64,000 bases of DNA, from the NCBI GenBank assembly GCA_039915165.1, contig JBDSNU010000018.1:2064-66063 (forward strand), in the 5' to 3' direction. Position 1 is the stretch's first letter. Each line of letters starts with the position of its first letter. This document shows, piece by piece, positions 4,225-62,894 of the stretch. Made by a program: the position numbers and the translations under genes. The notes under the pieces were generated by a model that saw only the letters and a list, made by a program, of their open reading frames with translations, searched no databases and had not been told where the DNA came from. The DNA is from Minisyncoccota bacterium (GTDB taxonomy: Bacteria > Patescibacteriota > Minisyncoccia > Phycocordibacterales > UBA9973).

Positions 4225-5274
4225 TCACCACGTTTGTGAACCTCCTGATCCACCACTTGCTCCCGAACCATCTGAGCCGCCCTGGAAACCATTGTTGTAA
4301 CTACCACCACCACCTGCTCCTGATCCATGACCATTGAAGAAGATTAATTTGGTAAGCACTCCTACAACTACAGCAGCGCCAGTCACAATACCTACATTTC
4401 TCAATGTATGGTTAGGTTTTTTAACAACCATACCAGTTGCATTGGGATTCAGTACTGCGATAGTAACTGTAGCTGTTTTACCAGAGCTGGTAGTCAGCGT
4501 GTACGTAGTGGTCTGAGTAGGATTAACAGCTAAGTCACCGCTTCCAGGTTGCACTGATGCAAAACCTGAAATGGTTACAGATTGACAAGAAGTTTTCCAA
4601 CTAAGGATTATTTCCTGACCTGGACCATACGATGTTTGCGGTACAGCAGTAAACAAGAAAATGTCGCAGCCAGCTGGTTGCTGTTGCTGATAGGTTACTT
4701 GTCTCACTGGTTGTTGTTCAACTTGGCGATACCCGGTAGTTTGTGTTACCTGCCTCAATACGTTTCCGCAATTGGCACGGCTTTTTGCAGTAGCTCCTGT
4801 TTGAATGTTTGTAATAGTAGCAATTAGGTACTGCTTGTTGGGATAAGGAAGATTAAGTTTAAATTTCCTCGGATCCCCCCAATGTAACTGGTTGTCCTGG
4901 CCATCTATAAGATAGCTATCTTCCCAGTTGTCCCACCAAGAACCGCTTACTATTTCATACGTAACACTGTACATTTCAGGATGACTAGGATCAAACTGTT
5001 CTCCCATTTGACGAGATATCTCAGCATTGGTAATGCTAATTATTTCGTCACAAGAGATTTGATCTAAGGCTCTGAAGATACGGTGTTTTTGCTCGTAGCT
5101 ACCAAACATACCGTAGTAATAATTGTATTTTACTCTTTCGAGGTTTTCCTCGTGTTGTACGTATGTTATAAACATACCACTTCCCATTGCAGTTTGTGCA
5201 AAAGTGGGCGTAATGTATGTGAAGCTCAATACTATGAGCATCCACACTAAGTTAATTTTCTTTTTCATAGTCAA
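4225..5274 (-). CDS. Secreted/membrane-anchored protein (349 aa) with one Ig-like module shared with the upstream 680-aa protein and a Gly-rich C-terminal tail after a TM helix
   Basis: Signal peptide MTMKKKINLVWMLIVLSFTYITPTFAQ. Module CDIFLFTAVPQTSYGPGQEIILSWKTSCQSVTISGF...YTLT. C-terminal TM plus GGGGS-rich tail. Confidence 0.55.
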   Translation of the reverse strand: MTMKKKINLVWMLIVLSFTYITPTFAQTAMGSGMFITYVQHEENLERVKYNYYYGMFGSYEQKHRIFRALDQISCDEIISITNAEISRQMGEQFDPSHPEMYSVTYEIVSGSWWDNWEDSYLIDGQDNQLHWGDPRKFKLNLPYPNKQYLIATITNIQTGATAKSRANCGNVLRQVTQTTGYRQVEQQPVRQVTYQQQQPAGCDIFLFTAVPQTSYGPGQEIILSWKTSCQSVTISGFASVQPGSGDLAVNPTQTTTYTLTTSSGKTATVTIAVLNPNATGMVVKKPNHTLRNVGIVTGAAVVVGVLTKLIFFNGHGSGAGGGGSYNNGFQGGSDGSGASGGSGGSQTW

Positions 5275-5481: not shown

Positions 5482-6681
5482 ATGAAAAGAATACTATTTC
5501 TGTGTATCATCACAGTGTGTGTATCATGCACACCAAAGCTCGTAGAACCAGCTTATACTCCCCCTCCAACTCATAAACCAACAGGCAAAGAACCTGTTAT
5601 GGTGATCGAGTCTCAGCTTATCCTTCATCCAGTCAAAGATATTGCCGCTGGTGATAATGGAAAGAATTACAATTTTTTCTATGATTACGGTAAGCGGTAT
5701 CTGCATATGACAGACGAGGACGAGACAGCAGCAGCTATTCGCAAATTTTTGCCTGAGTACATTACGGCTGATTCAATTGGTCGTGGCGTAAACCTGCAAT
5801 CGGCAGCGATATCCCCTTTTTCCAGTTTTACTGATCTAGTGAAAGACAAGATCACAAAAACAAAAGGCGTTGATTTCAGTACCATTAACATGTATCAATT
5901 TGCTAAATCCTTTAACGTTGATCTAGTAAGAAATAACCAGGGGGCAATGGAGGCGTTGTTAAAAATGCTTACTCCGAGTGAAACACGTGGATCATTTGTT
6001 AGTATCACTCCAGGCCGTACACCGATTTATGGGGTGCAAGGATTGTTGCTGAATCATCCGATCAAAAACATGATTAAAGGTGTTGATGGCAAGGAATGGT
6101 ATTTCTTTTTAGACAGAACTAGCCATTGTATTTTTATTACCGATGATGCAACATTGTATCAAAAAATTGTTGCCGTGCTTCCTATCGAAGCTGTGTACAA
6201 AAATGCTGTAGTTATGCAAGGGATTACTATTGAACCATTGGTGTTCTTCAGTGACTCTACACGTACAGCGATGGAAAAGGATCAAGGACTAGAATTAAAC
6301 GGTGGCGGTTCAAACACTGACAACAAAACAATAAATAATTATGACATCGCTGTTATAGAAAATTGTTCAATGGTTATTGATTATCCTGGAGTAATAACTA
6401 CTTTAAGAAAAAAATTGGGAGTAGCGTCACGCGTTACAAATACGACGGCTCCAACTTTTGGACAAAAAAGTTTTACAACTCCTGGATATGTACGGCCACC
6501 CAGTTCAAGTGCTATACCCCTCCCCCCGCCTCCGGCAAAGGTTGATCAGGATACACAGGAATATGAGACTCCTCCTCCAACCAACTCTAACCGGCGCTCT
6601 AAAGGAAATGTACCCGCTCCAAAAAAAACCGGGTATACCCCTCCTACTACTCCGCCGCCTTCATCGAGCGGTCGTCCTTAA
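5482..6681 (+). CDS. Lipoprotein (399 aa) with a Pro/Thr-rich C-terminus
   Basis: Lipobox-type signal MKRILFLCIITVCVSC. C-terminus PLPPPPAKV...TPPTTPPPSSSGRP. Confidence 0.55.
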   Translation: MKRILFLCIITVCVSCTPKLVEPAYTPPPTHKPTGKEPVMVIESQLILHPVKDIAAGDNGKNYNFFYDYGKRYLHMTDEDETAAAIRKFLPEYITADSIGRGVNLQSAAISPFSSFTDLVKDKITKTKGVDFSTINMYQFAKSFNVDLVRNNQGAMEALLKMLTPSETRGSFVSITPGRTPIYGVQGLLLNHPIKNMIKGVDGKEWYFFLDRTSHCIFITDDATLYQKIVAVLPIEAVYKNAVVMQGITIEPLVFFSDSTRTAMEKDQGLELNGGGSNTDNKTINNYDIAVIENCSMVIDYPGVITTLRKKLGVASRVTNTTAPTFGQKSFTTPGYVRPPSSSAIPLPPPPAKVDQDTQEYETPPPTNSNRRSKGNVPAPKKTGYTPPTTPPPSSSGRP

Positions 6682-10895: not shown

Positions 10896-11132
10896 ATGAG
10901 TGACTTTGAAGATGCAGCAGGAGAAGCTGGCCTTAACCCTGAAGATACATTAGATATCGCAGAAGTAGTAGAGGACGACGACGTCCTTGCTCCAGAAATT
11001 GATGATGCTCTCCCACTTGCCGATGACGATGGCGCACTAGGCGACACTGACGGTGAAGAAAAAGAAGGCGAAGGAGAGGATGAAGAATTTATGAGCTACA
11101 TGTACGGCGAAGACGTACTTAACGAACGATAA
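10896..11132 (+). CDS. Small hyper-acidic protein (78 aa, about 40% Asp/Glu), function unknown
   Basis: MSDFEDAAGEAGLNPEDTLDIAEVVEDDDVLAPEIDDALPLADDDGALGDTDGEEKEGEGEDEEF... Clean ORF with a terminator directly after it. Confidence 0.5.
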   Translation: MSDFEDAAGEAGLNPEDTLDIAEVVEDDDVLAPEIDDALPLADDDGALGDTDGEEKEGEGEDEEFMSYMYGEDVLNER

Positions 11133-11133
11133 T

Positions 11134-11176
11134 AAAAAAGACCGTCCCGAACATAGTTCAATGACGGTCTTTTTTA
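11134..11176. terminator. Bidirectional terminator hairpin (aaaaaagaccgtc...gacggtctttttt) shared by convergent genes
   Basis: 7-bp GC-rich stem with A-run and T-run on either side, between the acidic ORF stop and the SET-domain gene stop. Confidence 0.6.
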
Positions 11177-11626
11177 TTATTGAGTTAGTACTGCTTTTTC
11201 TCTCTTTAGCGTACATTTTACACAACGACAACCTTTTGGTTTGATGTGTGTATTCCAAAAGTCTTTTCCGTAATCATAAAAGAGTTCTTCGCCTTCTTTT
11301 ATAGCGCGCTTGGCGTATATAAATACTCGGGTTTTATGGATTTCTACTTCACAGTTCGGTGTACAGGCATGATTGATATATCGAGCAGTATTTGAACGAG
11401 TAGTACCATCAATAGTTTTCTTTGATGAAACTTCAAACAAATATTGTCCCCCTCTTTCATTTACTTCGTCTTGTGTAGTGAGAATATCGCCAACGTATTC
11501 AATGATACAGTCACCTTTTTTAATCGATACCGTAGTAAATAGTCCGAGACCATTAATTCCTTTTTTAACTTTTAGATCTCCAGGATAAGAGTATTGTATT
11601 TCGGTTTTTTTAGCAGACATGGTCAA
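11177..11626 (-). CDS. SET-domain protein-lysine methyltransferase-like protein with a post-SET Cys cluster
   Basis: SET signature motifs GLGLF...GDCIIEYVGDIL, ARYINHACTPNCEV, EELFYDYG, and post-SET CRCVKC. Confidence 0.85.
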   Translation of the reverse strand: MTMSAKKTEIQYSYPGDLKVKKGINGLGLFTTVSIKKGDCIIEYVGDILTTQDEVNERGGQYLFEVSSKKTIDGTTRSNTARYINHACTPNCEVEIHKTRVFIYAKRAIKEGEELFYDYGKDFWNTHIKPKGCRCVKCTLKREKAVLTQ

Positions 11627-11644
11627 AAGTATATCACAAGAATA

Positions 11645-12505
11645 TTATCTATCTTGCCATTTGGCGTAGATACCTGTTGTAAGTAAGCGGTCAGATGATT
11701 GCTGTTGAATGCCAATCTCCCCGTATGAAATAGTTCCTTTTGGTAATACATCAAAAAGTAACTCTCCGAACGTTCTTGCGCTAAAACCAGATGCGTAGCC
11801 ATTCATAATGACCAGCTTCGCTTCAACAGAAAGTAGTTCAGGAAGTAATGCCATAAGTTCCAAAATTTTTTCTTCGATCTTCCACACTTCCCCTTTTGGC
11901 CCGCGACCAAATGCTGGGGGGTCCATAACAATTACTTCAAATTGTTCGCCGCGCTGTATTAAACGTTTTGCATATTTGAGAGCATCGTCGGTGATCACCC
12001 GTAGCGCATCGCCCTTAAGGCCAGAAGTTTCTGCATTATCTTTCACTGTTTGTATCGTTTGTTTAGATGCATCAACATGAGTTACTTTCATACCCGCTTG
12101 AGCTGCAGCAACACTTGCCGCACCTGTATACCCAAAAAGATTTAACATGCGAAGTCCTGCATGTTTTTTGCCTAATGATTGTAGTTCTGCCCACTGCTCA
12201 GAATGTTCGGGAAACATTCCTACATGTTTAAACCCTTTAAAAGAAAGGTTTATTTTCATATCATACCAGTCGATTTTCCAATCTTCAGCAATACCTTTAT
12301 TGATACTCCATCGGTCTCCTTTATCAGCCCAAATAAATTGTGCATCTGCTTGTAGCCATTTATCGGCAGCAGTTTTTTTCCATAGTGCTTGTGGGTCAGG
12401 ACGGTCAAGAACTACACCTGCAAAGCGTTCCAATTTTCTTCCTTCTCCAGAATCTAACAGTTCATATGAGTCCCATCCAGTTGTTAGTACATCAATTTTT
12501 TTCAT
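11645..12505 (-). CDS. Class I SAM-dependent RNA methyltransferase (RlmI/YccW-like)
   Basis: Rossmann MTase motifs LNLFGYTGAASVAAA and VIVMDPPAF. Start set at MKKIDVLTTGW to abut the upstream gene. Confidence 0.6.
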   Translation of the reverse strand: MKKIDVLTTGWDSYELLDSGEGRKLERFAGVVLDRPDPQALWKKTAADKWLQADAQFIWADKGDRWSINKGIAEDWKIDWYDMKINLSFKGFKHVGMFPEHSEQWAELQSLGKKHAGLRMLNLFGYTGAASVAAAQAGMKVTHVDASKQTIQTVKDNAETSGLKGDALRVITDDALKYAKRLIQRGEQFEVIVMDPPAFGRGPKGEVWKIEEKILELMALLPELLSVEAKLVIMNGYASGFSARTFGELLFDVLPKGTISYGEIGIQQQSSDRLLTTGIYAKWQDR

Positions 12506-13391
12506 ATGCAGCGAGCGCTGATTCAATTGTTGGATATACAAAATCAAATCCTTTATCTACTAATCTTTTTGGCACCACGCGACTGTCATTAGTCATTTCA
12601 AAATACCCATCATTAAACATTTTCTTGCCGAGCCATTGTGGAATAGTTATTACCAACCGATGTTTCCATATATTTTTTAATGATTGCAAAAATGTACTAT
12701 ACAGTACTGGTTCTGGTGCTGTAGCATTTACCACTCCTTGTAGAGTGTTTGTTTCAAGTGCAAATAAATATGCATTAACAATATCCATTTCTGAAATCCA
12801 TGAAAACCAGAAGTCTTCTTTTTTCAATCTCGGCAAAAATCCCCATCCTGCAGATTTTTTTATTAAGGACATCAATCCACCATGACCAATAACAGGTGAA
12901 GTTCGGATACATACAACACGGACACCGAACTCTGTTGCCTTACGTGCTTCTGCTTCCCACTCCATAACAACGTCTGCCAAAAATCCAGTGCCATTTGGTG
13001 ATTGTTCATCGTGTATTACCTCACCGGTATTACCATAAAAACCAGAGGCTGAGGCACAGATAAATACCGTTGGTCGACTTTTTGACGCAGCGATAGCTTC
13101 AACAATCGAAGCAGTGCTTTTGATACGACTGTCATGAATAGCTTTCTTATTTTTTTCAGTCCACTTCACACTAATAGGAGCCCCTACTAAATTAATAATA
13201 GCGTCTGTCTGCTCCAAAACATTATACGGTAATGGCTGAGTGGCAACATCTGACTGTATAAAAAAGAGGTTTTGATGAGTGAATGATGGTGGAGTAAGCG
13301 CAATAACCACCACTGTGTGTCCTTGTGCTAATAGTCGTTTTGATACTGTTGTACCAATAAAACCGCTCCCGCCCGTAACTACTATAGTCAT
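12492..13391 (-). CDS. NAD-dependent epimerase/dehydratase-family protein with C-terminal DUF1731 (YfcH-like)
   Basis: N-terminal VVTGGSGFIGTTV Rossmann motif; 299 aa typical of the YfcH family. Confidence 0.7.
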   Translation of the reverse strand: MTIVVTGGSGFIGTTVSKRLLAQGHTVVVIALTPPSFTHQNLFFIQSDVATQPLPYNVLEQTDAIINLVGAPISVKWTEKNKKAIHDSRIKSTASIVEAIAASKSRPTVFICASASGFYGNTGEVIHDEQSPNGTGFLADVVMEWEAEARKATEFGVRVVCIRTSPVIGHGGLMSLIKKSAGWGFLPRLKKEDFWFSWISEMDIVNAYLFALETNTLQGVVNATAPEPVLYSTFLQSLKNIWKHRLVITIPQWLGKKMFNDGYFEMTNDSRVVPKRLVDKGFDFVYPTIESALAAYEKN

Positions 13392-62621: not shown

Positions 62622-62894
62622 CTATTTTACAGCGTCTTTCAATGCCTTTGCAGCACGGAATTTTGGAACGCGAGTAGCTGCAACCTTTACTGGTTCACCA
62701 GTCTTAGGGTTACGAGCTGTGCGAGCTGCACGTAGTTTAACAGAAAAGATTCCAAGTCCAGCAATCGATACTTCGTCGCCTTTCTTTAATGTCTTAACGA
62801 TTTCTTCGAGGATACTCTCCACAATTTCTTCAGCCTGTACCTTTGTACCGCCTACCTTTCCGTGGATAAGTTCAACGAGTGCTTGTTTGTTCAT
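62622..62894 (-). CDS. hup: HU-family DNA-binding protein
   Basis: MNKQALVELI...GLGIFSVKLRAARTARNPKTGEPVKVAATRVPKFRAAKALKDAV. Confidence 0.85.
   Translation of the reverse strand: MNKQALVELIHGKVGGTKVQAEEIVESILEEIVKTLKKGDEVSIAGLGIFSVKLRAARTARNPKTGEPVKVAATRVPKFRAAKALKDAVK

Follow-up and report, generated by a model that had tools for sequence, protein, structure and literature searches.

A small stand-alone SET-domain protein, predicted to be a protein-lysine methyltransferase, in a conserved gene cluster of one Patescibacteria clade

Among the SET-domain proteins of bacteria, RomA/LegAS4 of Legionella pneumophila combines SET with ankyrin repeats, an NLS and a signal for Dot/Icm secretion. 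The characterised bacterial examples that are reviewed in PMC10117894 are all host-directed nucleomodulins, and it is the role of SET proteins in non-pathogenic prokaryotes that is at issue here. Small stand-alone SET proteins of bacteria, discussed by Alvarez-Venegas 2007/2014 (PMC3980110), form the described group that is most similar to the protein presented below. Other useful points of comparison are the minimal stand-alone SET methyltransferase vSET of PBCV-1 (119 aa; PDB 1n3j), reported to be dimeric as cited in PMC10117894, the small prokaryotic SET proteins cpnSET/NUE of Chlamydiae and Go1-SET of Methanosarcina mazei, and the eukaryotic KMT2/MLL and SET1 enzymes (PDB 2w5y, 5f59, 4z4p, 7w6a, 6ven).

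The window analysed in this study is a stretch of 64,000 nucleotides (64 kb). The homologues of its SET protein, like the closest contigs, bear the names Candidatus Nomurabacteria or Paceibacterota, and by these names the genome belongs to the small-celled Patescibacteria/CPR lineage, in agreement with the small-genome setting that had been assumed beforehand. The SET gene and its recognisable parts are as follows.

11177..11620, minus strand: predicted SET-domain protein-lysine methyltransferase gene; 147 aa from the ATG at 11620, stop codon at 11177-11179
11267..11551, minus strand: SET core domain, residues 24-118; full-length PF00856, predicted fold like the SET domains of MLL/SET1/EZH2
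11537..11551, minus strand: GLGLF, residues 24-28; GxG motif for SAM binding, read from the DNA
11351..11374, minus strand: NHACTPNC, residues 83-90; N83 and H84 at the SAM/active site, C86 the predicted fourth zinc ligand
11270..11287, minus strand: ELFYDY, residues 112-117; Y117 the catalytic Tyr, Y115 at the Phe/Tyr switch position
11213..11230, minus strand: CRCVKC, residues 131-136; post-SET Cys cluster with CxCx2C spacing

An open reading frame of 149 aa (11177..11626, minus strand) is obtained when translation is read from an in-frame TTG at 11626, and this was the length given in the earlier note. That reading frame is present, but translation almost certainly begins at the ATG at 11620 and yields 147 aa, since the N-termini of 26 homologues align there, the gene calls on the closest contigs are also of 147 aa, and an identical 147-aa sequence from a Candidatus Paceibacterota MAG has been deposited in GenBank under the name "SET domain-containing protein" (MEO5646286.1 and MEO6332678.1). 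The GC content of the gene (35%, compared to 39.7% for the window) is unremarkable, and the protein has a pI of 9.1.

The SET identity, originally proposed from motifs together with an HMM search as the way to check it, was clearly supported by Pfam: PF00856 is matched over its whole length (model positions 1-105 of 105) with an E-value of 1.1e-25 and a score of 90.5 bits, where the cut-off is 22.4. Chance could not account for such a match, and the same family is matched by all 27 aligned relatives (27/27). A phmmer search against the PDB gave the SET domains of KMT2C, KMT2D and MLL1 at an E-value of 2e-19, with alignments extending through the post-SET cysteines, and the sequence matches also take in the SET domains of EZH, ASH1L and EHMT. 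Structure prediction, which had likewise been called for, led to the same family. The AlphaFold2 model, built from a 27-sequence alignment (mean pLDDT 82, pTM 0.73), displays the SET beta-fold with the C-terminal segment threaded beside NHxC, and Foldseek retrieved SET domains only, with TM values of 0.6-0.7 to MLL1, MLL3, MLL4, EZH2 and EHMT1.

The signature motifs that had first drawn attention to this gene (GLGLF, NHACTPNC, ELFYDY and the post-SET CRCVKC) could all be read back from the DNA, and residues 80-86 (RYINHAC) fit the (R)xxNHxC motif for SAM binding. In an alignment of 27 relatives with 54–92% identity, the invariant residues are G24, L25, G26, Y42, Y60, R80, Y81, N83, H84, C86, N89, E111, E112, L113, Y115, D116, Y117, C131 and C133, while C136 is conserved in at least 90% of the sequences. 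The SET assignment would have been refuted, as stated beforehand, had the SAM-binding positions or the catalytic Tyr been lost; all of them are kept, and they are invariant throughout the 27 relatives. Compared with its closest relative the gene has a dN/dS ratio of 0.03, at a dS that is near saturation, and it is under strong purifying selection. From the conserved motifs the gene product is very probably an active SET lysine methyltransferase. In two orthologues with 79–80% identity (L007 and L009) the active-site motif, which is otherwise invariant, has a one-residue insertion and reads NHVCSKQNC instead of NHxCxPNC.

A Tyr is present at the first aromatic position of ELx#DY in all motif carriers (112/112) among the 120 closest cluster representatives. 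We take Y115 to be equivalent, by its place in the motif, to Y334 of SET8 and Y3942 of MLL1, and Y42 to be equivalent to Y245 of SET8; structures of SET8-Y334F and SET8-Y245F are among the fold matches of the model. A Tyr at the Phe/Tyr switch position predicts that the product is mono- or di-methyl-lysine rather than tri-methyl-lysine.

C-terminal to the SET domain the protein has three Cys residues (C131, C133 and C136), which together with C86 of NHxC are predicted to form a Cys4 zinc site. Their spacing is CxCx2C, two residues shorter than the canonical post-SET spacing CxCx4C. Of 120 close homologues, 119 have this spacing, and in a wider set of 150 cluster representatives CxCx2C occurs in 78 and the x4 spacing in 11; CxCx2C is thus the rule within this SET subfamily.

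In all these properties the window protein falls within the group of small stand-alone bacterial SET proteins (PMC3980110), being a single-domain protein with the same motifs and CxCx2C tail as relatives of 135–165 aa and 55–92% identity. Such proteins occur in Patescibacteria, Alpha- and Gammaproteobacteria and Chitinophagales, and nothing substantive sets the window protein apart from them. Its catalytic SET plus post-SET unit also resembles that of the KMT2/MLL and SET1 enzymes, but the N-terminal flanking domains and WRAD-complex partners of the latter are absent, the SET-I insert is very short, and the post-SET spacing is CxCx2C instead of CxCx4C. The likeness to KMT2-type enzymes is one of mechanism, not of family membership.

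The resemblance to RomA/LegAS4 (NF043024; PDB 8swi) is more limited, as the score against this model is 38.6 bits compared to a cut-off of 550, and the alignment (23% identity) comprises only residues 21-120 of the SET core. RomA/LegAS4 proteins have 439–451 residues, compared to 147 in the single-domain window protein, which has neither the ankyrin repeats nor the secretion signal that accompany SET in that architecture. The window protein falls outside the RomA/LegAS4 family. By description only, it can be likened to cpnSET/NUE and Go1-SET as another small prokaryotic SET protein and contrasted with NUE, which is type III-secreted and acts on host histones.

Like vSET, the window protein consists of a single SET module. 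Some of its relatives have two SET modules in tandem within one polypeptide (P0121, 264 aa; P0128, 352 aa; P0177, 335 aa), suggesting that the single-module proteins may act as dimers. In P0121 and P0128 this arrangement hints at a dimeric function, as reported for vSET (cited in PMC10117894).

The family appeared to be much larger than expected from the earlier note, in which bacterial SET proteins were considered rare. When one genome for each GTDB species was scanned with a degenerate pattern, at least 592 confirmed loci with close SET relatives were obtained, of which the best 80 were used for lineage and neighbour counts. These best 80 loci include many Patescibacteria lineages (among them Nomura-, Adler-, Vogel-, Kaiser- and Uhrbacteria), 12 alphaproteobacterial loci with a GC content of 63–70% (Hyphomonadaceae, Caulobacterales and Methyloceanibacter, including the isolate M. 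marginalis R-67177, whose orthologue at locus L057 is 57% identical), three loci from Gammaproteobacteria and one from Chitinophagales. The orthologues from the Alpha- and Gammaproteobacteria and Chitinophagales are 54–61% identical to the window protein, and the family is thus shared with cultivable free-living bacteria such as M. marginalis. An exhaustive HMMER search against 1.84 billion representatives of 50% identity clusters gave 11,731 clusters with a threshold of E<=1e-3, of which 1,896 remained at E<=1e-10 and 31 at E<=1e-30. The best of the clusters are mostly of 130–200 aa. More distant SET proteins (34–42% identity), annotated as SET domain-containing protein-lysine N-methyltransferases, are encoded on plasmids of Burkholderia, Paraburkholderia and Caballeronia. 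With at least 592 species genomes, 1,896 clusters at E<=1e-10 and the exact protein already annotated at NCBI, rarity can no longer be maintained. The SET family is widespread, without a tie to host association.

A literature search for SET proteins in Patescibacteria/CPR found no paper on them. Patescibacteria are a new lineage for the SET literature, and the protein was already labelled correctly in GenBank. The window brings no new class of system, since the protein had been annotated and its family is known. Involvement in a defence system or a mobile element was also considered and rejected: the SET protein has no PADLOC match, phage records contain only two weak SET matches, and an IS200-like gene 2 kb away is mostly absent from syntenic relatives. 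The latter gene encodes a Y1 transposase (PF01797; 8463-9080, plus strand), lies between a type II secretion/pilus ATPase gene and RuvB, and is found at this spot in only a few syntenic relatives (L001, L002, L006 and L007).

The genes on the minus strand of the window are, in order, TyrRS, an NAD-epimerase/DUF1731 gene, a class I methyltransferase gene and the SET gene, and the following features adjoin the latter.

11645..12505, minus strand: class I SAM-dependent methyltransferase (PF10672/PF03602, RlmI/RlmK-like), its stop codon 24 nt ahead of the SET ATG
12492..13391, minus strand: NAD-dependent epimerase/DUF1731; opens the probable operon and overlaps the methyltransferase gene at the start of the latter
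11129..11180, either strand: putative bidirectional intrinsic terminator, a hairpin located between SET and a convergent acidic ORF, with U-runs on both sides

The class I methyltransferase and SET genes are probably co-transcribed, and SET is the probable last gene of a housekeeping operon consisting of the epimerase gene, the class I methyltransferase gene, SET and the terminator. The hairpin has a folding energy of -27.7 kcal/mol (z -7.4; 0 of 200 shuffled sequences fold as well) and lies between SET and a convergent unit that comprises RuvB, RuvC and an acidic ORF of 78 aa. A consensus terminator scan missed this hairpin. The best NCBIfam matches of the class I methyltransferase are the 23S rRNA methyltransferases RlmK/L and RlmI, albeit far below every cut-off. 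The same protein also matches the PADLOC model mad2 with 56 bits.

The gene order of the window is kept in about 21 species-level genomes, with SET proteins of 58–92% identity, and these genomes form a monophyletic clade in a rough NJ tree. The identities of the neighbouring proteins track that of SET, as can be seen in L003 (RuvB 79%, RuvC 62%, SET 60%, TyrRS 70%). Both the conserved gene order and the identities in step with each other indicate that SET is a vertically inherited core gene of this clade. An intact and strongly conserved small SET enzyme is thus a core gene of one Patescibacteria clade.

Ten window neighbours were compared by tblastn to 85 SET loci, and all ORFs within 4 kb of SET were clustered de novo. 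Adjacency of the class I methyltransferase and SET genes was found in about 21 of the 80 species-genome loci, all in one clade, while 59 of the 80 have none of the SET neighbours of the window; the class I methyltransferase was rejected as a family-wide partner, since the adjacency recurs in this one clade only. On four further SET-encoding contigs the neighbours are phosphoketolase and acetate kinase genes, type II secretion ATPase genes, or Sua5 and BacA genes, and the window order is found in one. De novo clustering revealed no family-wide SET partner: besides the synteny block of the clade, the largest real neighbour clusters comprise 6–9 loci, and they represent a 291-aa protein, SWIB and a cold-shock-domain protein. 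As the synteny of the window is limited to one clade, no conserved partner indicates the substrate.

The SWIB and cold-shock neighbours are hints only, and weak ones, at the nucleoid. SWIB/MDM2-domain genes (PF02201, 1e-30) were found 24-86 nt upstream of SET and co-directional with it in three loci.

L043, 5673-6372, co-directional with SET: SWIB/MDM2-domain gene
L045, 3226-3936, co-directional with SET: SWIB/MDM2-domain gene
L073, 2570-3354, co-directional with SET: SWIB/MDM2-domain gene

SWIB genes are also present within about 2.5 kb of SET in L037, L047, L083 and L085, making seven Patescibacteria genomes in all. These links fall in two clades of the rough NJ tree; they could be synteny by descent, and a SET-SWIB module is possible. 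They are paralleled in Chlamydiae by the co-occurrence of SET and SWIB described in PMC6426960, where SWIB is said, with attribution to Aravind et al. 2011, to co-occur often with SET. In Waddlia, the SWIB protein binds over the full length of the bacterial chromosome (PMC6426960). A cold-shock-domain gene is found next to SET in six species-genome loci and in two metagenome loci (the P0108 loci). It is convergent and immediately downstream of SET in L052, L063, L079, L083 (about 6433-6667, minus strand) and the P0108 loci, lies within about 1 kb of SET in L035 and L037, and occurs in L088 at 4535-4738. No SWIB or cold-shock gene was found within the 64-kb window. An HU gene, which had been put forward as encoding a potential substrate, is indeed present at 62622-62894 (minus strand; PF00216, E-value 7e-31, 90 aa from ATG), 51 kb from the SET gene.

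We propose, as the explanation with the best though by no means certain prospects, that the gene encodes an active, cytoplasmic, stand-alone SET protein-lysine N-methyltransferase which modifies at least one protein of the bacterium itself, possibly a nucleoid-associated one. Its methyltransferase activity, zinc site, product state and cytoplasmic endogenous target are all deduced from sequence and context. The enzyme would be expressed from the last gene of the epimerase/class I methyltransferase/SET operon. By analogy with established SET-domain enzymology, the GxG and NH motifs would bind SAM, a channel lined by Y42, Y60 and Y117 would admit the target lysine, and the Cys4 zinc site (C86, C131, C133, C136) would fold the C-terminal segment over this channel. 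With Y115 at the switch position, one or two methyl groups would be added, but not three. That the enzyme acts inside the cell is likely. A target associated with the nucleoid, which the earlier note had also suggested, is plausible but is put forward more tentatively and is somewhat doubtful; the leading guess, which is speculative, would be a small, abundant, basic nucleic-acid-binding protein, i.e. HU here and SWIB- or cold-shock-type proteins in relatives. The rRNA-methyltransferase-like operon partner is a hint that points to the ribosome and not to the nucleoid, and this linkage is limited to one clade.

The earlier note regarded the protein as a candidate effector, which would be secreted and would methylate host histones or other host proteins in the way of RomA/LegAS4, NUE of Chlamydia, BtSET of Burkholderia and BaSET of Bacillus. 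Since CPR bacteria are generally host-associated, the characterised bacterial SET proteins are all host-directed, the SET core has its nearest counterparts in eukaryotic H3K4-type enzymes, and type IV pilus/T2SS-type ATPase genes are close by, such a role had to be weighed, but it is highly improbable in view of the properties of the gene and its product. The protein lacks a signal peptide and any hydrophobic or TM segment (maximum Kyte-Doolittle value over 15 residues 0.83), and with a single Pfam domain in 147 aa it has no NLS-bearing extension, ankyrin repeats or other effector module; its 38.6 bits against the LegAS4 model fall far short of 550. The SET gene is located in a stable housekeeping operon without a mobile-element signature of its own, its dN/dS ratio of 0.03 gives no trace of the fast evolution that is frequent in effectors, and close orthologues are present in free-living bacteria. 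Moreover, the known hosts of CPR bacteria are mostly prokaryotes, without eukaryotic histones. On these grounds the effector role was rejected as unlikely.

An endogenous substrate could also be a ribosomal protein or a translation factor, with SET acting beside the neighbouring rRNA-methyltransferase-like enzyme. Yeast SET-domain Rkm enzymes, which methylate ribosomal proteins, provide a precedent, the operon is shared with a methyltransferase that best matches RlmK/L and RlmI, TyrRS is encoded just upstream on the same strand, and the very high conservation across phyla (55–60% identity) would suit a universal substrate such as a ribosomal protein. We nevertheless consider this unlikely, because the adjacency of the two methyltransferase genes is absent from 59 of the 80 loci, neighbour clustering and contig look-ups revealed no ribosomal-protein genes recurring beside SET, and the class I enzyme, far below every NCBIfam cut-off as it is, is itself only a putative rRNA methyltransferase. 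Finally, the SET fold might serve a non-lysine or small-molecule substrate, as in the histidine methyltransferase SETD3 and in BurB, or belong to a catalytically dead binding protein. There is very little to be said for this, as the lysine-methyltransferase signature (NHxC, ELxYDY, GxG and Y42) is intact and invariant, and the protein is 30–38% identical to true lysine methyltransferases compared to 12–16% to SETD3 and BurB.

Within the favoured interpretation, that of an enzyme acting on the bacterium's own proteins, there is some precedent for nucleoid substrates in reports of Hc1, a nucleoid protein of chlamydiae, being methylated by cpnSET and of the archaeal MC1-alpha being methylated by Go1-SET (PMC10117894). 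SET together with SWIB- or HU-type proteins might then constitute an endogenous nucleoid lysine-methylation system of Patescibacteria and other free-living bacteria, an extension that we regard as improbable. If true, nucleoid methylation by SET would be a bacterial counterpart, and possibly an ancestor, of eukaryotic chromatin marking, and the SWIB-SET pairs of some CPR lineages would be an operonic trace of such a system.

The acidic ORF on the other side of the terminator (10896-11132, plus strand), just downstream of RuvC, encodes 78 aa with 31 Asp/Glu residues and one Lys (pI about 4). It was considered as a partner or substrate of SET and rejected, having a single Lys, belonging to the convergent RuvBC unit and giving no match in Pfam, NCBIfam or PADLOC. 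Relatives have an acidic ORF of 66–75 aa at the same site, with 31–39% identity.
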